Shown here in pieces: positions 1 to 28,509 of a stretch of DNA of 32,000 bases (position 1 is its first letter; every line of letters begins with the position of its first letter). Both the position numbers and the translations under genes were made by a program. The DNA comes from Alkalilimnicola ehrlichii MLHE-1 (GTDB taxonomy: Bacteria > Pseudomonadota > Gammaproteobacteria > Nitrococcales > Halorhodospiraceae): NCBI RefSeq assembly GCF_000014785.1, contig NC_008340.1, forward strand, positions 1,320,001 to 1,352,000. Direction: 5' to 3'. A model generated the notes under the pieces. It was not told the origin of the DNA and ran no database searches. It was given only the letters and a program-made list of their open reading frames with translations.

Positions 1-1513
1 GCGCCCGCGCAAGACCCGGTAGAGCACCAGCGCGAGGAAGCAAATCATCGCGTGCGCCCGAATGCGCTCCGGCAGCCGGTGGTAGACCGGCGCGATTTCA
101 ATCTCGCTCTTGAGTACCCGGAATCCACGCTCGATATCGGCCAGGGAGCGGTAACGCTCTACCACAGCTTCCGCCCCCATGTCGGTGAGGCTGGTAACCA
201 GCAGTAGCTTGCCGTCCAGACGTTCGGCAGCCGCCCAGGCGGGCTCATCGATGGTGTAGCTGAATTGCGGCGAGCCGAGATCGGCCTTGATGATCGCGCT
301 CATGCGCCTCTCCAGCACGGCCTTGTGGAAGCGCTGGTAGGCACTACGGTCGGTGGAACGCCGCCCACGACCGGGCTGGCCAGCATCCTGATTATCGAGT
401 CGCTCGGCGAGTTGGGCACCAAGGGCGTCAAGCTCTTCGATGGTCTGCCGACGCTGCGCGCTCTGCTCGGCGGCCCGTTCGGCATTGTGGGCCACCACCA
501 GGCGTCGGCCCTGCCAGGTGGTTTCGGTCACCACGTCCTGACTAGGCTCGGTGACGGCGGTTTCCAGTTGCGTATGCAGAGACTCCATCACCTCGGTGAA
601 GTCCCCGTAACGCCGGGCGGGTACAGCCAGAATGTAGTCGACCGTCAGCCCCTGCTCGACGCCCAGTGCCTCCAGAGTGTCGATGTTATCGAAGCTGAGC
701 AGGCCGCGGTCGGCGACCACTACCACGCGGGCGAGCGCGAAACGCTCCAGCAGACGTTCAATCATTGGGGCCAGGGTGCGCGTCTCGGCGACATTCCCCT
801 CGAAGACCTCGTGGGCGATCGGCAGGCCTTCGGCAGTCTGGACCACCCCCAGCGCAAATTGGCGGCCAATACCGGCGGTGTCCTTGCTGAGGCCATGCTG
901 ACGGATATCGTCTTCCATCGCATGGGTGCCGTGGATGCGTACCGTGGTGAGATCGTAAAAGATGACGCTGAGATCCTGGTCAAGCAGCGGCCGCAACTGG
1001 CCGGCTACCGCACGCTCCACGGCCTCCTTGTGGTCCTCCAACGCATCCATGGCACGCAGGAGTTGCTCGTGGTGCACGGTCGAGGCATCGAGCCCGGGCA
1101 TGCTGGTGCTCTCGCGCAACCACTCCAGCGTGCCGCGTTTGCTGCTCGGCTCAGCGAGGCGGTTGAAAACCATGGCTCGGATGAGTGCCTCGGCATCGAA
1201 CTGTCGTCGGGAGGAGCGCAGAGCCCGTTTCAAGGCCCCATCCAGGCCTAACTCCTGCCAGAGCTGATGGAGGGTCCACACATCGCCAAAGGCGCGGGCG
1301 GTCTCGAACTGAGGCGCTTCAGGCAATGATTCAGGACGCCCCACCGCCCGTTGGAGTCCCTTGATGAGCGGCTCCAGGTCAGCTGCCTCAAGCTGATCAA
1401 GGCGACCCAGGCTGGCTACCACACGCTGTTTAACCTTGCCGTTGGCGTCTCGGTAGCCCTCGACCAACTGCAAATAGCGGCGCGGGCCGGACTTTGTGAT
1501 GCGCGTGTACATG
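1..1513 (-). CDS. IS1634-family (IS4-like DDE) transposase; the C-terminus lies beyond the window start
   Basis: Absent from the ORF track because it runs off the window. My minus-strand translation from the ATG (cat at 1511-1513) reads MYTRITKSGPRRYLQLVEGYRDANGKVKQRVVASLGRLDQLE... and stays open to base 1. DDE-type blocks are present: VIFYDLTT, VVVVADRGLLS, YRSLADIERGFRVLKSEIEIAPVYH. The listed + ORF 265..1251 is its antisense shadow. Confidence 0.8.
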
Positions 1514-1556
1514 GCATGACATTATGCCACCCAGAGACCTGCAATCAATAGCCAGC

Positions 1557-2156
1557 TTAGGATTCGCGTGACACAACAGCGGCTTGGCTGGTTCTGGCCG
1601 CGCAGATCAATCGCTTCAAGCACTTACGTCCCACAACCCCTTGGGTTTTCGGTCTGAAGTGTGGAACTTGGGCGCCCCAGGTCACGCTGGCGGGCATGGG
1701 CGTCTTGAACCTACTTGCACCCGTGAACACCACCACGGAATGGATGTGCTCTGGCGGGACACCAAGCGCTGACTCCAGTGCCTTCACGTGCTTGTAATTC
1801 TGGCGAAGGGGGTTCTGGAACTTGAAGGTTTTCTTGTAGATCTTCTGCGTCCACTGAGCCTGACGCTCGCCGCCGAAAATCCAGCCCTTCATGTTCTTTG
1901 TCTCTACCACGAAGATGCCGTAGCGAGACACGAAGATATGGTCGATCTGCGTGGTTCCGTCCGGTGTGGGTAGCGTGACGTTGTGCAGTCGGTGGTATTT
2001 ACTCGCCGGGAGCCTTAGCTTCGCTGCCAACTTGACCAAGGATTCGCCGACCAGCCCCTTGAACCATGGAGAGCGGAGTATCGCCATGATCAGGGCGATA
2101 GGAATCACCCACCACAGTGTCTTCAGGATTTCAGTTGTGATTAGGTTAGTGTCCAT
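1557..2156 (-). CDS. NERD (nuclease-related domain) protein with an N-terminal membrane anchor; the 3' end abuts the IS
   Basis: 199-aa ORF. It has an N-terminal hydrophobic helix (LKTLWWVIPIALIMAIL) and a NERD/PD-(D/E)xK-like core (QIDHIFVSRYGIFVVETKNMKGWIFG...QNPLRQNYKHVKALE...VVVFTG). Family assignment is by motif recognition only. Confidence 0.7.
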   Translation of the reverse strand: MDTNLITTEILKTLWWVIPIALIMAILRSPWFKGLVGESLVKLAAKLRLPASKYHRLHNVTLPTPDGTTQIDHIFVSRYGIFVVETKNMKGWIFGGERQAQWTQKIYKKTFKFQNPLRQNYKHVKALESALGVPPEHIHSVVVFTGASRFKTPMPASVTWGAQVPHFRPKTQGVVGRKCLKRLICAARTSQAAVVSRES

Positions 2157-2216
2157 GTCTTGTCATCAACGTGGCGCTAACCGGCGCGAGGCACGAGCGT
2201 CCGGTTGAGCAATTTG

Positions 2217-2693
2217 TTAGCGGTATAAAGTCAAAATCTTCCTGATAGCCAACTTAGCGGCAGCGAGCGGTATCACGGTCATGACAGGAACAAGCATCGC
2301 GCCCACGAACACAGCTCCAGACGTTGCAGGACTCCACTCGAGCGGGTTGAGATAGAACAGCGCCATAGCTCCGGTCGCCACCCCGCAGAGAAGGAGAGAC
2401 ACAGTCACCCGAAACTCCAGGGCCCAATACTGCGGCCACTGGTAAAGAACTTTATTCTCTTCCTCGTCCCCCGGCCGTAGCACATCCATGCCGAGTTTGT
2501 AGCTAACACCTACCAGCACAAGCGGAAGCCCGCCAAGGAAGGCAGGAAGCCCCTTTGCATCTCTAACAGACGAAGCCACCGCCTCGAAAAACTCGGGGTT
2601 TCGGTGCGCCAGGAGCGCGACCGCTAGAACGCAAAGAAGCTCGGGCGACACCAACAGAAGCCGCTTTAGGTCAAGGAGCTTCGCGAGCATCAA
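2217..2693 (-). CDS. small integral membrane protein, about 4 predicted TM helices, unknown function
   Basis: 158-aa ORF with four hydrophobic stretches (LLLVSPELLCVLAVALLA, LPAFLGGLPLVLVGV, VTVSLLLCGVATGAMALFYL, AVFVGAMLVPVMTVIPLAAA). Its ATG overlaps the upstream gene's stop as ATGA (2690-2693). Confidence 0.7.
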   Translation of the reverse strand: MMLAKLLDLKRLLLVSPELLCVLAVALLAHRNPEFFEAVASSVRDAKGLPAFLGGLPLVLVGVSYKLGMDVLRPGDEEENKVLYQWPQYWALEFRVTVSLLLCGVATGAMALFYLNPLEWSPATSGAVFVGAMLVPVMTVIPLAAAKLAIRKILTLYR

Positions 2694-3583
2694 TCGTGCT
2701 CCATGTGTCGCTCTTCTTTGATTCGCTCAAGTATAGCGGCCGTTTTCCGGTAGAGTTCCTCGGGTTCAGGGTCTCGCGCGAACGAGAAGTTCCTTACCGT
2801 TTCAGAGGTCCTGATTATTACCACATCATCGCCCTGCTTCCCCCGCACGTATCCTTTGCCGTATCCATCAGCGGCCATCAGGATGGCAGCATCTCCGATT
2901 GGCAACGATCCCGGTGCGTACGGCTTGTCCGCACTCTGCTGAACAATACCTTGGACATGCTCCGGCAGGTCGGTGTCGAGCGGCTCCCTTTGGCTGCTGT
3001 CCTCTTCGACTTTCATGCGGTCTGTGTTGCGGGACTTGAGGTAGTTCTTGAGATCCTCCCACAACGGACCGAACAATGGGTTGGGCGGCGACACGGTCGC
3101 TGATACGCGATATATTCCGTCTAATCCGTTGAGTTTGCGTGCAAATGAACGAAGATCAGCTATGGGGTCGACATCGCACCGCGCAAGAAGCTGGTTGTGC
3201 GAGGCATTGATAACCTCAGCCCAACGATTCATGAAGGTCGTATGCTCTATCTGATTGGACACATGGAGGAACGAGAGGCCCGAATGCTCGGGGACGTATA
3301 GGAAAGGGCTCGATGCGCGCGTGATATTGGGCTGCCGCTGAGTCGTCTCCTTGTGTTGCTCCGGATCGACTACCGAAACCTCGCCGTCTGGATCGTATTT
3401 CCCAAGACGCCCAAAAAAGTATGAGGATCGGCCATCGGAAAGCTCGCGGACGTCAAGGAACGTCCATGCGGAACCGTACCTCGTTATGCTCTCAGGCGCA
3501 CGCAGAGCGGCCTTTATGTCGGCGGTTTCAAGAGCGCCGGTCTTTACTACCCTCCCTAGGTAGTAGGTTCCCTTGCGGGCCAT
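2690..3583 (-). CDS. hypothetical 297-aa soluble protein of unknown family, translationally coupled to the 4-TM gene
   Basis: Long ORF in the AT-richer region with an ATG start and a GGGGGA Shine-Dalgarno-like run upstream. I saw no Walker, TIR, helicase or other catalytic motif. The overall layout (YYLGRV...YFFGRLGKYDPDGEV...ATVSPPNP...AADGYGKGYVRGKQGDDVVIIRT) vaguely recalls DUF4747-type proteins, but this is unverified. Confidence 0.7.
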   Translation of the reverse strand: MARKGTYYLGRVVKTGALETADIKAALRAPESITRYGSAWTFLDVRELSDGRSSYFFGRLGKYDPDGEVSVVDPEQHKETTQRQPNITRASSPFLYVPEHSGLSFLHVSNQIEHTTFMNRWAEVINASHNQLLARCDVDPIADLRSFARKLNGLDGIYRVSATVSPPNPLFGPLWEDLKNYLKSRNTDRMKVEEDSSQREPLDTDLPEHVQGIVQQSADKPYAPGSLPIGDAAILMAADGYGKGYVRGKQGDDVVIIRTSETVRNFSFARDPEPEELYRKTAAILERIKEERHMEHD

Positions 3584-3658
3584 GCAAATTCCCCCAGAGT
3601 CTTATTGTTGGTCTTCCGCTAACGGCCGGCTTCCAAACGGCCGGCGTCCAAGCCGATG

Positions 3659-4309
3659 TTAGCGCTGATGGGATGGCGCGACCCCAACCCGTCTGAGCGC
3701 CTCGGCGATGTCTCTCCGGTTTATCAGTTGGTAAGTGTTGTCGCCCATGTCTAGCTCGAAGTCTAGGGCGCCACACATGCCATTTATCCTGCCGTACCCC
3801 GGCGCGCGAACAGGTGCGTTCGGCTTGCCCTTGATTTCGTGCTTAGCTAAGTTGATGCGGATCGATTCAGCCATTCTGAAAACCGGCTCTAGCGCCGCAT
3901 CGTGGGCCTCCATGAGGGCAACGAACTCCGGATCCTCTTGGAGACGCTCAAGATGCCTCACCTTCATGAGAGCTCCTAGGTTGTGCTGATCCTGCTGGAG
4001 CCGACGCATCATGTGAGGGATGGCGCCGTTCTCGCGCCATGTCTTCAACTTGCGAATCCGGTGGCGCCACGTCCTGAGCAACTCGTATAACGCGAATATC
4101 CACATCTGAGACTGCGCCGACACAAACAGCGCCTGCTGAGTAGGCGTCCGCTCAATCTCAAAATATGTTCTTAAAAGGTTGTACTCTTGGTCCGTGATAA
4201 AGGAGTCGTTTATCGCGATGTTCATCCCCTGCATGTTGAGGAACATGTCATCGAACAGGACCAAGCTACGGAACATCGTATGGATCCGTGAGAAGTCGAT
4301 CTCGTCCAA
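3659..4309 (-). CDS. hypothetical 216-aa protein; the start is uncertain because an in-frame TAG lies just upstream
   Basis: ORF in the AT-richer cassette. The track start at 4309 is a TTG and the first ATG is codon 12. An in-frame 14-codon mini-ORF with a good SD lies immediately upstream, separated only by TAG (see findings). Confidence 0.6.
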   Translation of the reverse strand: MDEIDFSRIHTMFRSLVLFDDMFLNMQGMNIAINDSFITDQEYNLLRTYFEIERTPTQQALFVSAQSQMWIFALYELLRTWRHRIRKLKTWRENGAIPHMMRRLQQDQHNLGALMKVRHLERLQEDPEFVALMEAHDAALEPVFRMAESIRINLAKHEIKGKPNAPVRAPGYGRINGMCGALDFELDMGDNTYQLINRRDIAEALRRVGVAPSHQR

Positions 4310-4383
4310 CGCAGGCTAGAGCTCTTCGTCATGCTCGCTGTGGTCGTCGTAGTGCGCCATTACTCCACCCGCTAACATCTAAG

Positions 4384-4418
4384 CATTTATCTGCCGTGCG
4401 CAGCATGGCGGATAAATG
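4384..4418. repeat. 12-bp-stem hairpin (CATTTATCTGCC / GGCGGATAAATG, 11-nt loop), possibly the terminal structure of the IS91-family remnant
   Basis: The inverted repeat is read directly from the sequence, with one G-T mismatch. It lies about 280 bp downstream of the IS91-like transposase stop, where IS91-family ori ends sit. Confidence 0.35.
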
Positions 4419-4698
4419 TCTGTTGGACTGAGCCGCCCTGCCCGGAGGCACGCGCTGGGTGGTCTTCTATATAAGGGGGAAAGTATCAGGCGCCCGTGGG
4501 GCACTTCGCACCTAGCGGCGCGAACCGAGTAATGCGTGGGTCTTCCTTGAGCGACCACCGCCGGTCTCCTCGAAGCTGGCCGTGAGTTCGTTCCCTTGAT
4601 ACTGCACCAGCCCTGCCCGAATTCCAACCGATGGCCCGCAAGGGACCGCGCCTTGCTCTGAAGGCGGTCTTCTCCACACGTTCAGACGGTGCGTCGAG

Positions 4699-5088
4699 CT
4701 ACGGGGATCGTCGTCGTTCCGCCTCCTCCCGCAGCGCACGGGGTTGCAGTTCCGCGATGACGAACAAGTAGCCCGACTTGCATTCCGGGCAGGGGGTGCC
4801 AACAGCCGAGGCCTCACCCGCCAAAGCGGGCGGTTCAGTGTAGGCTGACAGTGCTTCCCGCACCTGCGCCAGCTTGGCCCTGTGACTGCGGTTAGCCAGC
4901 AGCCCAAAATGGCGGATTCGCATCAGCCCCTTCGGCAGCACGTGTAGGAGCACCCGGCGCACGAACTCCTCACCGGCAAGCGTCACCTCACGGCGCTTGC
5001 CGTTCGCCCGGTAGTCCTGGTAGCGGAACGTGACGCTGGCCTCGTCGATGGCCAGGATTCGGTCATTGTGGATGGCGCTGCGGTGCGT
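4699..5088 (-). pseudogene. IS91-family transposase remnant (C-terminal ~129 codons only)
   Basis: The frame is open from the stop at 5089-5091 down to 4699 and reads THRSAIHNDRILAIDEASVTFRYQDYRANGKRREVTLAGEEFVRRVLLHVLPKGLMRIRHFGLLANRSHR...CPECKSG. That is the characteristic C-terminal block of IS91/Y2 transposases. There is no N-terminal portion and no plausible start. Confidence 0.75.
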
Positions 5089-6232: not shown

Positions 6233-6250
6233 TTGTCACGAAACCGTCAT
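6233..6250 (+). promoter_or_regulatory. candidate Pho box of the pstC promoter
   Basis: TTGTCAC-GAAA-CCGTCAT, two 7-mers with a 4-nt spacer. A -10-like TACCAT at 6261-6266 lies 10 nt downstream, which is canonical Pho promoter geometry. The site is 58 nt upstream of the pstC ATG. Confidence 0.5.
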
Positions 6251-6307
6251 GCCGGGCGCCTACCATCGCCGTCACTTCATCCACCACGGCGAGTTCACAC
6301 CTTGACC

Positions 6308-8623
6308 ATGACGGACACCTCCCCAGCCGCGGCGGGCGGCACCAGCGGCCGTTATCTCCCCAGCGAAGAGCAGCGCAGGCGCTGGCGCCGGTGGCGTCAC
6401 GTGAAGGACTGGATCAGCAAGGGCAGCATCGCCACCTTCGGGGTGGGGGTGATCGTCGCCCTAGGGCTGATCTTCGTTTACCTCTTCTCCGAGACCCTGC
6501 CCATCTTCGGCGACCCGGAGATCCGGCCGGTGTCCACCTACGCCGCCCCGGGCGGGACCGACTCCGGCCGCACCCTGCATACCGCCATGGAGCGCTACCA
6601 GGAGGTGGCGGTGCGCTTCACCGAGGAGGGAGGCGTCTACTTCTTCCGCCCCGGTAGCGGCGAGTTGCTGGACGAGTACCGCCTGAACCGGCCGGAGGGC
6701 GTGGAGGTGCGCAGCTTCGACGTGGCCGAGGCGCGCACGCGCCTGGTGGGTTACGGCTTGTCCGACGGCACCGCCATCATGGCCCGCCACGATTACGACG
6801 TCAGCTACACGGAAGGGCGGCGCGCCATCACCCCCAGCATCACCTACCCGGAAGGCGAGGGCGAGCCGCTGGAGGTCTTTGCCGAGGAGGGGCTGCCCCT
6901 GGACGCCATCACCGTGCAGCGCGGCCGGCGAGGCAGTGCGGTGGTGGCGGCCAACAACGAGGCCGAGGCGCTGCGCCTGGTGATGTTCGAAGAGGAGACG
7001 GACTTCCTCACCGGCGCGGCCACGGTGGAGCGCAAGATCTACGAACTGCCCTGGCCGGAGGCCGGCGTCGAGGTGACCCAGATCCTGCTGGACACCACCA
7101 TGCGCAACCTGTTCGTGGGCGGTGCCGACGGCCGGCTGCACTTTTTCGACGTCTCCAACCTCAACCGCCCCGAGCTGGTCAGCAGCCAGCGGGCCATCAC
7201 CGGCGAGGGCGCCGAGGTGACGGCCATGGACTTTCTGCTGGGGGCGGCGTCCATGATCGTGGGCGGGTCCGATGGCTCGGTGAGCCAGTGGATAATCACC
7301 CGGGGGGAGGATCGCAGCCGCAGCCTGACCGAGGTGCGCAGCTTCGACGCCCACGCCGCGCCCATCTCGGTGATCGCCCCCGAGCATGGCCGCAAGGGCT
7401 TTGCCACCGGCGCCGAGGACGGCACCGTGCAACTGGCTTACGCCACGTCGGCCCGGACCTTCTCGCGGATCGGTCTGGAGGGCGCCGACCGGGTGGACGG
7501 CCTGGCCATGGCGCCGCGCCAGGACGCCATGTTGGCGGTGGGGGGCGATGGCACCTTCCACTTCCTGGCGGTGGACAACCCCCACCCGGAGGTCTCCTTC
7601 TCCGCCCTCTGGCAGAAGGTCTGGTACGAGGGGCGCAACAACCCGGCCTACGTCTGGCAGTCCTCCTCGGCCACCCAGGAGTTCGAGCCCAAGTTTTCGC
7701 TGGTGCCGCTGACGGTGGGCACCTTGAAGGCGGCGTTCTACGCCATGCTCTTCTCCATCCCCATCGCGGTGCTGGGGGCCATCTATTCGGCCTACTTCAT
7801 GGCGCCGAAGATGCGCCAGATCACCAAGCCCACCATCGAGATCATGGAGGCCCTGCCCACGGTCATCCTCGGCTTCCTGGCCGGGCTGTGGGCCGCGCCC
7901 TTCTTCGAGCGCAACCTGCCGGCGGTCTTCTCCATCCTGATCGTCATGCCCATCGCCATGGTGTTCGCCGCCTACTTCTGGACGCGGGTGATGCCGGAGG
8001 GCATCCGCCGCCTGGCCCCGGCGGGCTGGGAGGCGGCGCTGCTGATCCCGGTGGTGCTGCTGGTGGGGTGGCTGGGGGTGACCGCCAGCCCCTTCCTGGA
8101 GCTGGCCTTCTTCGGCGGCGACATGCGCCAGTGGCTCACCGACCAGGGCATCAACTACGACCAGCGCAACGCCCTGGTGGTGGGGGTGGCCATGGGCTTC
8201 GCGGTGATCCCGACCATCTATTCCATCTCCGAGGACGCCATATTTAACGTGCCCAAACACCTGACCCAGGGCTCCCTGGCGCTGGGGGCGACCCCCTGGC
8301 AGGCGATGGTGACGGTGGTGCTGCTCACCGCCAGCCCGGGCATCTTCTCCGCCATCATGATCGGCTTCGGCCGCGCCGTGGGCGAGACCATGATCGTGCT
8401 GATGGCGACGGGCAACAGCCCGGTGGTCAACTTCAACCTCTTCGAGGGCATGCGCACCCTGTCGGCGAACATCGCCGTGGAGATGGGCGAGGCGGCGGTG
8501 GGCAGCACCCACTTCCGCATTCTCTTCCTGGCGGCACTGGTGCTCTTCCTGATGACCTTCGTGGTGAACACGGCGGCGGAGATCGTGCGCCACCGCCTGC
8601 GCAAGAAGTACAGCACCCTGTGA
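6308..8623 (+). CDS. pstC: phosphate ABC transporter permease PstC, long form with an N-terminal extracytoplasmic extension of roughly 450 aa
   Basis: The C-terminal ~300 aa is a typical PstC permease core (EFEPKFSLVPLTVGTLKAAFYAMLFSIPIAV...EDAIFNVPKHLTQGSLALGATPWQ...). The ATG at 6308 is preferred over the track's 6233 start, which falls inside the promoter region. Operon context is pstA, pstB and phoU. Confidence 0.9.
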   Translation: MTDTSPAAAGGTSGRYLPSEEQRRRWRRWRHVKDWISKGSIATFGVGVIVALGLIFVYLFSETLPIFGDPEIRPVSTYAAPGGTDSGRTLHTAMERYQEVAVRFTEEGGVYFFRPGSGELLDEYRLNRPEGVEVRSFDVAEARTRLVGYGLSDGTAIMARHDYDVSYTEGRRAITPSITYPEGEGEPLEVFAEEGLPLDAITVQRGRRGSAVVAANNEAEALRLVMFEEETDFLTGAATVERKIYELPWPEAGVEVTQILLDTTMRNLFVGGADGRLHFFDVSNLNRPELVSSQRAITGEGAEVTAMDFLLGAASMIVGGSDGSVSQWIITRGEDRSRSLTEVRSFDAHAAPISVIAPEHGRKGFATGAEDGTVQLAYATSARTFSRIGLEGADRVDGLAMAPRQDAMLAVGGDGTFHFLAVDNPHPEVSFSALWQKVWYEGRNNPAYVWQSSSATQEFEPKFSLVPLTVGTLKAAFYAMLFSIPIAVLGAIYSAYFMAPKMRQITKPTIEIMEALPTVILGFLAGLWAAPFFERNLPAVFSILIVMPIAMVFAAYFWTRVMPEGIRRLAPAGWEAALLIPVVLLVGWLGVTASPFLELAFFGGDMRQWLTDQGINYDQRNALVVGVAMGFAVIPTIYSISEDAIFNVPKHLTQGSLALGATPWQAMVTVVLLTASPGIFSAIMIGFGRAVGETMIVLMATGNSPVVNFNLFEGMRTLSANIAVEMGEAAVGSTHFRILFLAALVLFLMTFVVNTAAEIVRHRLRKKYSTL

Positions 8624-11398: not shown

Positions 11399-11529
11399 GG
11401 TGGTGCCGGGCTGCGGGGGCGGTTCGTCGTTCATGGGGTGTAGGCGGCATGGATGCCGCCTTCAAGCGTACAGGGATGTATTCACAGCGTCCCCATGAAC
11501 GACGAACCGCCCCGCAGTCCGGCACCACC
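11399..11529. repeat. 131-bp MITE/REP-like inverted-repeat element between pstB and phoU
   Basis: The arms are about 39 nt: GGTGGTGCCGGGCTGCGGGGGCGGTTCGTCGTTCATGGGG at 11399-11438 and its reverse complement at 11491-11529, with one mismatch and a 1-nt indel in a G run. The 52-nt centre holds a smaller hairpin (GGCGGCAT..ATGCCGCC). Confidence 0.7.
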
Positions 11530-11573
11530 CAACCCAAGCCGCCATAGCTACAGTCAATACAGGTCGAACCACC

Positions 11574-13534: not shown

Positions 13535-15151
13535 CTACTGAATGTGGCGGGAAAGCCAGCCGGCATTCTGTCTGTATTTCCTTTGCATATCGGATTGCTC
13601 AGGGGTAGCGCGGCCCCCTGATATGAACTGATCCAGCCGCCCTCGGTTCTCGGCATACGCATCGGCCCTCGATGCGTCGGTAGGCTGTCCGTCTCGGGCC
13701 ATGCGCACCACGGCCTTTTCAAACAACTTTTGCGCCGGGTTCGGGTGCTCTGCGGAGAACTCGCGCCGGGGCCCGTAGACGCCGGCCAGGACGCCGGAGA
13801 CAATCCATTGCAGGCAGTTGAGGATCGCCCGCTGGTGGAATCCTCGTGCTTGCTCCACGTTGTATTGGTTCTCCTCCACCTCGAACGCCTGCGGCTGACT
13901 GGTCAGGGTATAAAGCAGCGGCCCGAGGGCCTCGGGCGGCAGTTGGCGCACCCAGGCGCGCAGTTGCTGGACGCGCTTGTGGTGTTCCCGACTGGCCTCC
14001 GGGTCATACCGGAGGTTGGGCGGTTCCTCGGCGGCGAGTTCGTAGGCGATCCGGCTGGCCATGTCCCGCTCCCGGGTGAACCATTCGATCAGCTGGCGCA
14101 GGCGGTGGGTGCCGCGCAGCAGGAGCAGGGCGGGTTCGACCAGGGTGATGGCGGCGAGGTAGGCCAGGCGGCTCATCTCCTCGAAGGCGTCTTCGTCGAT
14201 CCAGTCGACGCGCTCGTAGCCGACCTCCACCAGCGCCTGGTGCATCATGGCGAGCCAGAGGTCGAGGTGGCGGGTGTCGAGGGCCAGGCGCACGCTGCCC
14301 CCGCCGCCGACGCCGAGCACCAGGCGCAGGGAGGCGTGCAGCACGAAGCGGCCGTTGTGCAGGCCGAGCCGGAAGGCGGCCTCGCCGCCGACCCCGACGC
14401 GTACTTCGGGGTTGATCTCGGCACGGGTCAGGGTTTTCCACTGGCGGGCCTCGTCCCGGGCGTAGCCCGCGCGGTCGATCTCGGCCATGGCCTGGTAGCG
14501 CGGCAGGCGCGCGAGCAGGTTCGCCGGCGGCTGCCAGAGCAGACGGCAGTGGTTGTGGCCGGCCAGTCCGGTGCCGGCGAAGGCCTCCAGTCGGGCATCG
14601 ACGCCGTCGCGCTCCACGGGGGCGAGGCCGTTGACGGCGAGACGGCCCCCGGCGGTGTCGAGCCCGACGCCGCCGCCCAGCGCCACGGAGACGGCGGCAT
14701 GGCCGTGGAGCACGGGCTCGATGTGCAGGCAGTAGCGGCCGATGGAGCGGGCATCGGGGTGATTGGCATCAAGGCCGAAGGGGACGATGACCGGCTCCGC
14801 CTTGGCGGGATCGGGCAGCTGGATGGGCGCGAGGGCGATCTCGCCACGGCCGAAGTCGAAGGCGTGCTGGCCCTGCGTTCGCAGCGGCGTCGTCGCGCCG
14901 TTGGCCCCGGGCTCCACGGTGGGAACGATGACGTGACCGTCCAGGGCCAGGCTGGGGGTGACCGCGAAACTCTGCCCGGATTGGCCGGGACCGGTGCCGA
15001 CGGCGTCGTCATGGCGGGCGGTGATCCCGATGCGGACGCCGTTTCCGGAGGCATCGTGCTCCGGGTCGGCCTGCGCCAGGGATTCGGGCAGGCGGCAACT
15101 ATTCCAAGGGAGCCAACCGGTCCGGGCGGTGACCTGCCAAAACAGGAGCAT
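13535..15151 (-). CDS. orphan effector C-terminal module, homologous to the C-terminal ~45% of the upstream T6SS effector and lacking the N-terminal region
   Basis: 538-aa ORF that starts 4 nt after the stop of the proximal immunity gene. From about residue 12 it aligns with the effector (LAQADPE.. vs VAQAEPE..). About 830 nt (14042-14872) is nearly identical to 16688-17518, and the tail is diverged. Confidence 0.75.
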   Translation of the reverse strand: MLLFWQVTARTGWLPWNSCRLPESLAQADPEHDASGNGVRIGITARHDDAVGTGPGQSGQSFAVTPSLALDGHVIVPTVEPGANGATTPLRTQGQHAFDFGRGEIALAPIQLPDPAKAEPVIVPFGLDANHPDARSIGRYCLHIEPVLHGHAAVSVALGGGVGLDTAGGRLAVNGLAPVERDGVDARLEAFAGTGLAGHNHCRLLWQPPANLLARLPRYQAMAEIDRAGYARDEARQWKTLTRAEINPEVRVGVGGEAAFRLGLHNGRFVLHASLRLVLGVGGGGSVRLALDTRHLDLWLAMMHQALVEVGYERVDWIDEDAFEEMSRLAYLAAITLVEPALLLLRGTHRLRQLIEWFTRERDMASRIAYELAAEEPPNLRYDPEASREHHKRVQQLRAWVRQLPPEALGPLLYTLTSQPQAFEVEENQYNVEQARGFHQRAILNCLQWIVSGVLAGVYGPRREFSAEHPNPAQKLFEKAVVRMARDGQPTDASRADAYAENRGRLDQFISGGRATPEQSDMQRKYRQNAGWLSRHIQ

Positions 15152-26918: not shown

Positions 26919-28509
26919 GTTGGAGGGCCCCCCGGTGGGGCAGTGGCAGCGCCTGTCGCCCTGGGCGCTTGCGATCCTGTTCCTGGGCGGGCTGTTCCGT
27001 TTCGTCCGCGAGAATCTGCCGCTGGTGGTCGGTGCCGGTGCCGGCGCGGCCCTGCTGGAGCAGGTGGGCCTGCGCGAGCTGGGCCTGGGCCTGGCCTTGG
27101 TGGGCCTGATCGCCGCGCTGATCAGTCTGCTCTATTACCGGCGGTTCCGCTTTCGCATGGACGGCGATGTGCTGGTGGTGCAGCGCGGCGTGCTGGAGCG
27201 GCGCGAGGTGAAGGTGAGCGCCGAGCGGGTCCAGCATATGGCGTTGGAGCAGCCGGTCTACATGCGCCCCTTTGATGTGGTCCGCTTCAGCCTGGACACA
27301 CCGGGCGGGGCCACCGCCGAGGTGGAGCTGCCGGGCATCCGCCGGGCGGTGGCGGAGGCGCTGCAGGAACGGTTGGAACGGGGCCGGCCGGGGCCCGCCG
27401 TGGAGGGTGCGACCGGGGCGGAGGCGGGGCAGCCCCCGTCGGAGGCGTCGACGGAGACGTTGTTCCGGATCGGCCCCCGTGGCCTCACCCTGCACGGCCT
27501 TGCCAGCAATCATGCCTACGTCATCGCCGCGCTGTTGGCGCCGGTGGTGCAGCCGTTGGAACGCCTGGCCCTGCGCAACCCAGAGCTGCTGGCCGGACTG
27601 CCCTGGCTGGAGGCTGCCGCCGAGTCGCCGGTGTTGGCCCTGGTGCTGACGGTGACGGCCCTGCTGTTGCTCCTGGTGTGCGTCTCGGTGGCTGTGGTCT
27701 GGCTGCGCTTTTTCGGCTTCACCCTGGTGCGCGAGGGCGGCCGCTACCTCCAGTACAGCGGTCTGTTCACCCGTCGCCAACAGACCCTCACGGCGGCGAA
27801 GCTGCAGTCCCTGGAGTGGGTGCAGACGGCGGCGGGCCGGCTGCTGCGCTGCGGTTACCTGGTCTGTCACCAGTACGGGGCCCTACCCGGCGGACCGGAT
27901 ACCGCGGGTCAGCGTTTCCTGGTGCCAGGGTTGAGTCGCCGGGAGGGACGCGCCCTGAGCGAGGTGTTCTGGTCGGGTCTGGGTGCGGACGCGGCGGGCC
28001 GGGGCGGCACTGGGGCGCCGGCCGGGGGCGCCTTCGAGGCGGGCTACCAGCGGGTCCACCGGCTCTACCGCCGGGTGCTGGCGTTGCGGCTGGTGGCCGG
28101 CGCCACCGCGTTGGCCCTGGTGCTGCTGACACTCACCGGCTTCCCCGGCTGGCTGGCCCTGGTGGCGCTGGCCCTGGTGCTGGCCTGGCCGGTGGCCTGG
28201 CTGCGCTGGCGCGCCGTCGCCTGGCGCCGGGCGGGGCGCTTCCTCTGCGTCCGGCGGGGGCTGCTGGGCCGGCGCACCACCCTGTTCCCGCTGGAGAAGG
28301 TCCAGGCGGTGACGGTGCAGCAGAGCTGGGTGCAGCGGCGCCGCGGGCTGGCCACGCTGCGGTTGCAGCTCGCCAGCGGGCCGGTGGTGGTGCCCTTTAT
28401 CCCGCTGGCCACGGCCCACGCGGTCGCCAATGAGGCCCTCTACCGGGTGGTCTTCCGGCCGGATTCAGCCCTTGGGGCCGAGCAGCAGCCAGAGGATCAG
28501 GATTTATAG
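26908..28509 (+). CDS. YdbT-like membrane protein with repeated bPH_2 domains
   Basis: ATG at 26908; the track start 26779 is over-extended. PH-like units repeat (VVQRGVLERREVKVSAERVQHMALEQPVYMRPF, YSGLFTRRQQTLTAAKLQSLEWVQT, RRGLLGRRTTLFPLEKVQAVTVQQSWVQRRRGL) and alternate with TM pairs. Confidence 0.75.
   Translation: MAAELEGPPVGQWQRLSPWALAILFLGGLFRFVRENLPLVVGAGAGAALLEQVGLRELGLGLALVGLIAALISLLYYRRFRFRMDGDVLVVQRGVLERREVKVSAERVQHMALEQPVYMRPFDVVRFSLDTPGGATAEVELPGIRRAVAEALQERLERGRPGPAVEGATGAEAGQPPSEASTETLFRIGPRGLTLHGLASNHAYVIAALLAPVVQPLERLALRNPELLAGLPWLEAAAESPVLALVLTVTALLLLLVCVSVAVVWLRFFGFTLVREGGRYLQYSGLFTRRQQTLTAAKLQSLEWVQTAAGRLLRCGYLVCHQYGALPGGPDTAGQRFLVPGLSRREGRALSEVFWSGLGADAAGRGGTGAPAGGAFEAGYQRVHRLYRRVLALRLVAGATALALVLLTLTGFPGWLALVALALVLAWPVAWLRWRAVAWRRAGRFLCVRRGLLGRRTTLFPLEKVQAVTVQQSWVQRRRGLATLRLQLASGPVVVPFIPLATAHAVANEALYRVVFRPDSALGAEQQPEDQDL

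Follow-up and report, generated by a model that had tools for sequence, protein, structure and literature searches.

Do four small co-oriented genes, which stand together in a low-GC segment of the Alkalilimnicola ehrlichii MLHE-1 genome, form one anti-phage system, or are they independent units that share a place? The question is raised by a stretch of 32,000 nucleotides (nt) of contig NC_008340.1 (assembly GCF_000014785.1, positions 1,320,001 to 1,352,000 of the forward strand), here called the window, and coordinates refer to its first position unless otherwise stated. The genes are all on the minus strand and were labelled A, an open reading frame (ORF) of 216 amino acids (aa) with a TTG start (4309..3659; an alternative ATG gives 205 aa), B (297 aa, 3583..2690), C (158 aa, 2693..2217) and D, a 199-aa ORF with a NERD domain (2156..1557). 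In the order A/B/C/D they are separated by 75 nt, a 4-nt overlap and 60 nt. An earlier note on this DNA described the genes with this arrangement, as was found again here, and proposed that they are a horizontally acquired candidate defence module bracketed by insertion sequences (IS). The DNA examined comprises the window and L001, a 20.9-kb A. ehrlichii MLHE-1 locus which reaches ~10 kb past the left window edge, ~42 kb in total. On the evidence below, the segment 1557-4376 is probably a short array of three independent integron-type cassettes, without an integrase nearby, in a ~10-kb mosaic defence island, and it contains B-C as an intact RexAB-like module. Cassette 1 would correspond to gene A, stand-alone and with an early nonsense codon here, cassette 2 to B-C as a RexAB-like two-gene module, and the third unit to D, a putative membrane-anchored NERD and zinc-ribbon gene cut in two by IS1634. 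There is good reason to regard these as three independent cassettes rather than one system. Since only B-C is recognisable, as a relative of lambda RexA/RexB, the locus adds an example to a known kind of anti-phage module and does not show a new four-gene system.

The distribution of the genes in other genomes separates B-C from its neighbours. Relatives of B were scanned with one genome per species, which gave 80 loci in other species, ranging from Proteobacteria to Verrucomicrobia, Planctomycetes, Chlorobi and Nitrospirae; with the four A. ehrlichii copies the count is 84 loci. A homologue of C was found by phmmer directly downstream of B in 73 of the 84, usually with an overlap of 4 nt or 1 nt. 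The remaining 11 comprise four loci without room on the contig and seven which show a divergent small hydrophobic ORF overlapping or abutting the B stop codon. Since these seven carry a hydrophobic ORF in the same place, the B-C pairing holds in every locus that can be judged, and a C-type partner is directly after B in all the other-species loci with room (76/76). In the window B and C overlap by 4 nt, and B is translationally coupled to C in cassette 2. No homologue of A was found in the 80 other-species B loci, and a NERD homologue is present in only one of them, in Marinobacter albus, upstream of B and non-adjacent to it. The earlier note had held that a lack of synteny in other genomes would speak against its module; this lack is what was found for A and D, while B and C are always together. 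The claim of one four-gene module therefore falls, on these counts and on the attC sites between the units; what stands of it is a middle pair, B-C, which is conserved and of a defence type. Moreover, B-C is intact in this genome, whereas A and D are damaged. A B-C homologue with 52% identity is present in Vibrio cholerae, on only 16 contigs. As a separate observation, the loci L044, L050, L051 (Verrucomicrobia/Akkermansia), L053, L071 and L080 share a conserved sequence directly before B. In these distant phyla the conserved stretch resembles the 3' end of a restriction-modification gene, either for specificity or for a methylase, so that restriction-modification genes and B-C may recur side by side outside integrons.

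The units are delimited by sites of the attC type. A covariance model was built from 13 aligned sites which flank B-C in other genomes only; these are classical attC sites (RYYYAAC ... GTTRRRY, 60-100 nt), located on both sides of the pair, and RNAalifold gives them an R''/R' stem and a bulged L''/L' stem with six covarying pairs. As a control, the same model recovers 13 V. cholerae repeats (VCRs) on which it had not been trained, at 28-32 bits, and in three multi-locus searches every match is on the gene strand (35/35, 24/24 and 38/38). Matches to attC are present at the B-C loci of 15 of the 80 species, and some of them are arrays of five to nine sites. When L001 was searched with the filters off, the model gave exactly two matches, directly after C and directly after A. 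The attC of the B-C cassette has 60 nt (2164..2223, minus strand) and, on the gene strand, is matched by the whole length of the model, with 31 bits and an E-value of 2e-5 to 3.4e-5. It shows R'' CGCTAAC, which holds the TAA stop codon of C, L'' GCTCAAC, L' GTTAGC and R' GTTGATG, and 7 nt separate its end from the ATG of D. Gene A is followed by a degenerate attC-like site of 49 nt (3617..3665, minus strand) with a 48-nt core, CGCTAAC-N34-GTTAGCG; the TAA stop codon of A is inside the 5' core, and the site scores 10.4 bits (E ~2-3) on the gene strand. The arrangement of CGCTAAC followed 34 nt on by GTTAGCG gives two matches against 0.04 expected, and the stop codons of A and C are inside the first heptamer of each. 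A lone GTTAGCG heptamer, an R'-like core read from the sequence at 4370..4376 (minus strand), is identical to the 3' cores of both downstream sites. It precedes the ancestral ATG of A by 10 nt and, although the attC model has no match there, may mark the 5' end of this cassette. Other approaches to the sites gave less: the Rfam scan of L001 shows no match to an attC family, and a first rule-based attC finder, which was too strict, found essentially nothing, so that the covariance model was used instead. Folding of the two sites as single-strand DNA gives unremarkable z-scores, from -1.0 to -1.8.

Two further places were noticed around these sites. The model shows a weak match at 27500-27561 (plus strand; 11.5 bits, E 1.6), in high-GC core sequence far from the cassettes, and this was treated as a chance match. 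Between the IS91 remnant described below and gene A, just upstream of the lone GTTAGCG, there is an inverted repeat of ~35 nt at 4385-4420 (minus strand; CATTTATCCGCC...GGCAGATAAATG). It has no match to the attC covariance model and could be either the terminal hairpin of the IS91-family element or another attC in decay.

Gene B is annotated as DUF4747 (PF15931) by precomputed tables and by its UniRef name, and most of its homologues carry PF15931 too. According to published work, DUF4747 is present in lambda RexA, in mycobacteriophage Sbash gp30 and in Gordonia phage CarolAnn gp44, each of which is paired with a protein of four transmembrane (TM) helices and each of which excludes phages (PMC6426606, PMC7542560), and a 2026 paper lists a 'DUF4747/CarolAnn' operon among the immune operons under CapK/CapS control (PMC13373217). 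The AlphaFold2 model of B, made with 26 homologues, is confident (pLDDT 88.4, pTM 0.86). Its two best Foldseek matches in the PDB are the chains of lambda RexA, 8TWQ_B and 8TWQ_A (E 3.1e-7 and 5.9e-5, probability 1.00), and the next is Escherichia coli RdgC, 2OWL. RdgC is a reported structural relative of RexA, and RexA homologues are described as dimeric, non-specific DNA binders (PMC11077077). From the model, B would be a DUF4747 protein of the RexA/RdgC fold, predicted to be a cytoplasmic sensor or DNA-binding partner and probably dimeric. Neither B nor C has a match in the Pfam, PADLOC, NCBIfam and PHROGs profiles scanned here, and PDB sequence searches with B and with its profile gave nothing meaningful. 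Searches for B in phages, plasmids and IMG/VR gave no phage matches and one weak plasmid match.

Gene C encodes the protein for which the earlier note counted four TM segments, and these were found at 7-25, 46-64, 96-114 and 127-145. The hydrophobic segments of lambda RexB are at 8-26, 48-66, 84-102 and 116-134. C is thus predicted, from its sequence, to be a small four-helix membrane protein, the RexB-like partner and effector of B. Because of fold, topology and gene order, B-C is likened to the RexAB class, and it is very probably a RexAB-like two-gene unit of the CarolAnn/Sbash type, similar to Sucellos of V. cholerae. The earlier note knew of no named system which matched; this holds for the quartet, while B-C fits the RexAB-like class of DUF4747 protein plus four-TM-helix protein. 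By analogy with lambda Rex and V. cholerae Sucellos, the pair would confer a defence phenotype, and it may be expressed in this host. On phage infection, B may sense a phage-derived DNA or protein-DNA signal, probably by binding DNA, and would then activate C, which would form a pore or channel in the membrane; depolarisation and loss of ATP would abort the infection at the cost of the cell.

Gene A, of an uncharacterised family, is probably an independent single-gene cassette. The ORF described in the earlier note is real and matches no profile, as was said there, and it is the remainder of a longer gene: the ancestral extent is 3659..4360 (minus strand), starting at an ATG at 4360, with 233 codons and an in-frame TAG at 4318-4316. 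The segment between this ATG and ORF A aligns with the N-termini of homologues, and the TAG replaces a Tyr of most of those aligned, so that the 216/205-aa ORF represents a restart downstream of a nonsense mutation. The product may still be made from the TTG or the ATG, since the conserved core starts only behind the restart. Searches gave from 567 to 1344 homologues, a family of ~1,300 members of 215-270 aa across many phyla, with the invariant motifs SQMW..A.YE..R.W, R.NLAKH, PGYGRI and NRRD.A. There is no match to A in Pfam, PADLOC, NCBIfam or PHROGs; none of the 1,344 proteins collected with the family profile in a search for domain fusions carries any Pfam domain, and the A profile gave nothing meaningful against PDB sequences. 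Of the four genes, then, only D is named by the Pfam and PADLOC profiles that the earlier note had suggested as a check. The structure predictions suggested there give the RexA/RdgC fold for B and, for A, a confident AlphaFold2 model (pLDDT 92.9) of long helices forming a helical bundle with a small C-terminal beta-sheet, for which Foldseek finds no neighbour in PDB and BFVD (best E ~1). An assignment of A as a HEPN RNase, suggested by the invariant R-x5-H of 'RxNLAKH', is not supported: there is no Pfam, PADLOC or NCBIfam match and no HEPN structure is among the Foldseek matches.

The homologues of A have no conserved neighbour and are solitary in five different contexts. The V. cholerae homologue is the first cassette of the superintegron, beside intIA and followed by a VCR; a second homologue is within an array of 16 attC matches; others stand alone, with either glycosyltransferases or RelB/ParE and a relaxase adjacent; and a few are in prophage-like contigs, with integrases as neighbours or with a terminase gene and a DUF4145 gene nearby. 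Defence and addiction genes have such habits, occurring as single-gene cassettes and in accessory positions of prophages. A tentative reading takes A as a mobile accessory function of a new, stand-alone kind and, most plausibly, as an anti-phage or abortive-infection protein encoded by a single gene, although this is rather doubtful. Its basis is the ~1,300 members without a profile match, the confident model without a neighbour, the one-gene cassette in the first, best-expressed, position of the V. cholerae superintegron and the prophage-like sites. In two unrelated arrays a reverse-transcriptase gene directly adjoins the A-family cassette: in L086 (1005-2345) it encodes RVT_1 and GIIM, the group II intron maturase domain, and in L094 (6755-8449) RVT_1 only. 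These genes are consistent with group II introns that target attC.

Gene D encodes a NERD protein (PF08378, E 5.2e-35, 120.7 bits against a gathering cut-off of 22.1) with an N-terminal hydrophobic helix. The earlier note described it as a membrane NERD protein of 199 aa; domain and helix are as it said, while the last 38 codons belong to an IS and the gene is split. The IS1634-family element occupies positions 1..1672 of the window (minus strand), with its left inverted repeat at 1647-1672 and the transposase start at 1512, and it runs off the window. It is ~1.92 kb long, with 26-nt inverted repeats at L001 11912-11937 (window 1672..1647) and 13808-13833, and it is flanked by a target duplication, GGGGCG, one copy of which is at 1673-1678. 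Since the inverted repeat begins at 1672, within D, codons 162-199 (1557..1672, minus strand) are read-through into the end of the IS, a spurious tail of 38 codons, and the native part, codons 1-161 (1673..2156, minus strand), contains the N-terminal TM helix and the NERD domain. The true 3' end of D, with the zinc ribbon, is beyond IS1634 and outside the window. When the IS and one 6-bp duplication are removed, D is restored to 257 aa, comprising TM helix, NERD domain and a topoisomerase-type zinc ribbon, and it shows 54% identity, colinear end to end, with a 265-aa Marinobacter protein.

The setting of the cassettes agrees with acquisition by horizontal transfer. GC content is 0.56 over 1673-4376 and 0.686 over 5259-32000, and the minimum in windows of the same size elsewhere is 0.625; the low GC that the earlier note had seen by eye is therefore real, and the strings it quoted are present. 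The IS bracket is also confirmed, on the left by the IS1634-family transposase (NCBIfam NF033559, E 9.4e-119), with the correction that this element is inserted in D and does not merely flank the segment, and on the right by a remnant of an IS91-family (Y2) transposase, of which only the C-terminal part is present (4699..5073, minus strand; PF04986 from precomputed tables; NF033538, E 8.8e-15, profile positions 277-355 of 356). The remnant adjoins the cassette region on its 5' side, exactly at the GC drop, in the place where intI/attI would be expected. Past IS1634, the mosaic island of low GC extends as far as the gene for isocitrate dehydrogenase (L001 14282-18951), and its genes there include an OsmC-like and a MazG-like one and an ORF of 69 aa. 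Two further genes encode a 793-aa protein with helicase and S24-peptidase parts, which matches the PADLOC profiles PDC-S41 (2.8e-18), AbiO (2e-10) and Nhi (1e-9), and a RhuM-Fic/Doc protein (PDC-S23, 1.8e-120). Since there are defence-type genes beyond IS1634, the cassettes sit in a defence island of ~10 kb, without a tRNA gene, and the earlier claim of horizontally acquired cargo, here in a defence-rich island, is supported. Two features are located elsewhere. In the pst-phoU operon there is a PstC-type phosphate ABC permease of unusual length (771-796 aa; 6233-8623, plus strand), with weak precomputed WD40/beta-propeller matches in its N-terminal half and BPD_transp_1 in its C-terminal half. 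Near phoU/pst, at L001 2048-2149 (~window 11435-11536), Rfam Ysr224 shows a sub-threshold match (33 bits against a gathering score of 70, E 3e-4), which is probably due to chance or to an unrelated structured leader.

Several results weigh against the reading as cassettes with a RexAB-like pair. With E ~2 and 49 nt, the attC-like site that follows A is both weak and short; the attC model shows none behind D or ahead of A; tblastn with V. cholerae IntIA found nothing, and neither intI nor attI is present in the ~42 kb of window and L001; and the promoter and terminator scan shows nothing on the gene strand inside the array. The designation as an integron array is therefore based on comparison with other genomes together with two sites, of which one is strong and the other weak, and since there is no integron integrase in the window or L001, the array would be CALIN-like (cluster of attC sites lacking integron integrases) or a decayed integron. 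As for the pair, the PF15931 label of B comes from precomputed annotation only; the Pfam set used for our own scans did not include this model. The global Foldseek TM-score of B to RexA is low (0.33), which would fit a different angle between its two domains. The Pfam (PF15969/PF15968) and PADLOC models of RexA/RexB have no match to B or C at E <= 1, while the same models find lambda RexA/RexB at 1e-97/8.5e-92 (Pfam) and 9e-110/8.6e-61 (PADLOC). Nor does hhalign give any signal between the B family and lambda RexA or the C family and RexB, so that the link to RexA/RexB is structural only. Finally, two phage collections yielded no member of the B clade, in contrast to lambda Rex and the actinophage systems, and there is no phenotype on record for the B-C clade.

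These points bear differently on the explanations that compete with an array of three cassettes. One of them takes the four genes as one new anti-phage system, with the NERD nuclease as effector and the other three proteins as sensors or regulators. Co-orientation, tight spacing and the common low GC would suit it, as would the RhuM-Fic and helicase genes beyond IS1634, and NERD is found in BREX PglW and MADS6 proteins. It is nevertheless extremely unlikely, and already largely refuted by the missing synteny: the other B-C loci lack A throughout and show NERD once and in another position, an attC splits C from D and an attC-like site splits A from B, the homologues of A are solitary in their five contexts, and B-C has remained intact while D was disrupted by an IS and A acquired a nonsense codon. 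Another explanation attributes the segment to IS activity, for example to one-ended rolling-circle capture by an IS91-family element as with ISCR, the CGCTAAC...GTTAGCG palindromes being terminators or relics without a current role. The position of the IS91 remnant at the GC drop speaks for it, together with the missing intI/attI, the weak site after A and the unremarkable folding of both sites. This is also unlikely, if less so, because the site after C fits the full, independently trained attC model on the correct strand with a score equal to that of genuine VCRs, and because the stop codon is inside R'', as in the closest B-C cassettes, those of Marinobacter and Halomonas. Moreover, IS assembly concerns only the arrival of the array, so that the genes could still be cassettes by origin.

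A further explanation accepts B-C as a unit and denies it a role in defence: a DNA-binding and a membrane protein could serve in regulation, in a membrane stress response or in the control of mobile elements. RexA does have a RexB-independent role in DNA binding, on the lysis-lysogeny switch (PMC11077077), and the lack of a recorded phenotype and of relatives in the two phage collections would agree with such a function. However, all the tested pairs of a RexA-like protein and a four-TM-helix protein exclude phages, namely those of lambda, Sbash and CarolAnn (PMC6426606, PMC6426596) and Sucellos (bioRxiv 10.1101/2024.07.02.601686); several B-C loci appear, by eye, just downstream of restriction-modification genes; and DUF4747 operons have been placed under the CapK/CapS immune regulators (PMC13373217). 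A non-defence role of B-C is thus very unlikely.

The value of the locus is in a widespread RexAB-like clade, in its spread on integron cassettes and in a clean uncharacterised candidate, gene A. The PADLOC, Pfam, NCBIfam and PHROG profiles scanned here all miss the B-C pair, even though it is strictly conserved in at least 80 species of many phyla. Its frequent transfer on integron cassettes extends Rex-type abortive infection well beyond temperate phages and supports the recent view of integron arrays as reservoirs of compact defence systems. For the mining of defence islands it implies a caution: tight, co-oriented strings of cassettes with odd composition mimic operons, and attC sites and cross-genome synteny tell the two apart. 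For phage-challenge screens, B-C and the family of A offer small and well-defined candidates.

Compared with known systems, the segment resembles integron cassettes and CALIN elements in its compact ORFs, in 5' leaders of only 33 and 7 nt behind the preceding site, in stop codons within R'', in an attC that has R and L boxes and whose L stem is bulged, and in sites co-oriented with the genes. It differs from them in showing one strong site only and no intI, attI or Pc promoter in the ~42 kb, and in being bounded and interrupted by IS elements. Restored D is similar to proteins with a NERD domain and a topoisomerase-type C4 zinc ribbon, with its N-terminal TM helix, PF08378 and zinc ribbon; the differences are that D is split here by IS1634 and that NERD shows no link to B-C in other genomes. 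B-C shares with lambda RexA/RexB the order of a soluble protein of ~280-300 aa followed by a four-TM-helix protein of ~145-160 aa, RexA 8TWQ as the best PDB fold match of B, and a helix spacing of C that resembles RexB. It has no detectable sequence similarity to them, and it is located outside a prophage immunity region, without an adjacent cI, as an integron-type cassette with A, NERD and IS elements as neighbours. The actinophage systems Sbash gp30/31, CarolAnn gp44/43 and Butters gp30/31, compared by description only, likewise combine DUF4747 with a four-TM-helix partner (PMC6426606, PMC7542560, PMC13373217). Their RexA-like proteins have 337-372 aa (PMC11077077) and are prophage-borne, whereas B has 297 aa and belongs to Proteobacteria and other Gram-negative phyla. 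Sucellos (SclA/SclB) is a two-gene cassette of the sedentary chromosomal integron of V. cholerae, structurally RexAB-like although the Rex Pfam models do not find it; both of its genes are required for its action, an abortive infection in which infected cells die (bioRxiv 10.1101/2024.07.02.601686). The relatives of Sucellos are reported mostly in prophages and those of the B-C clade are not, and since the V. cholerae homologue of B-C is rare (16 contigs), it is probably not the Sucellos of N16961 itself. Compared by its published description only, the profile of Sucellos fits B-C exactly.

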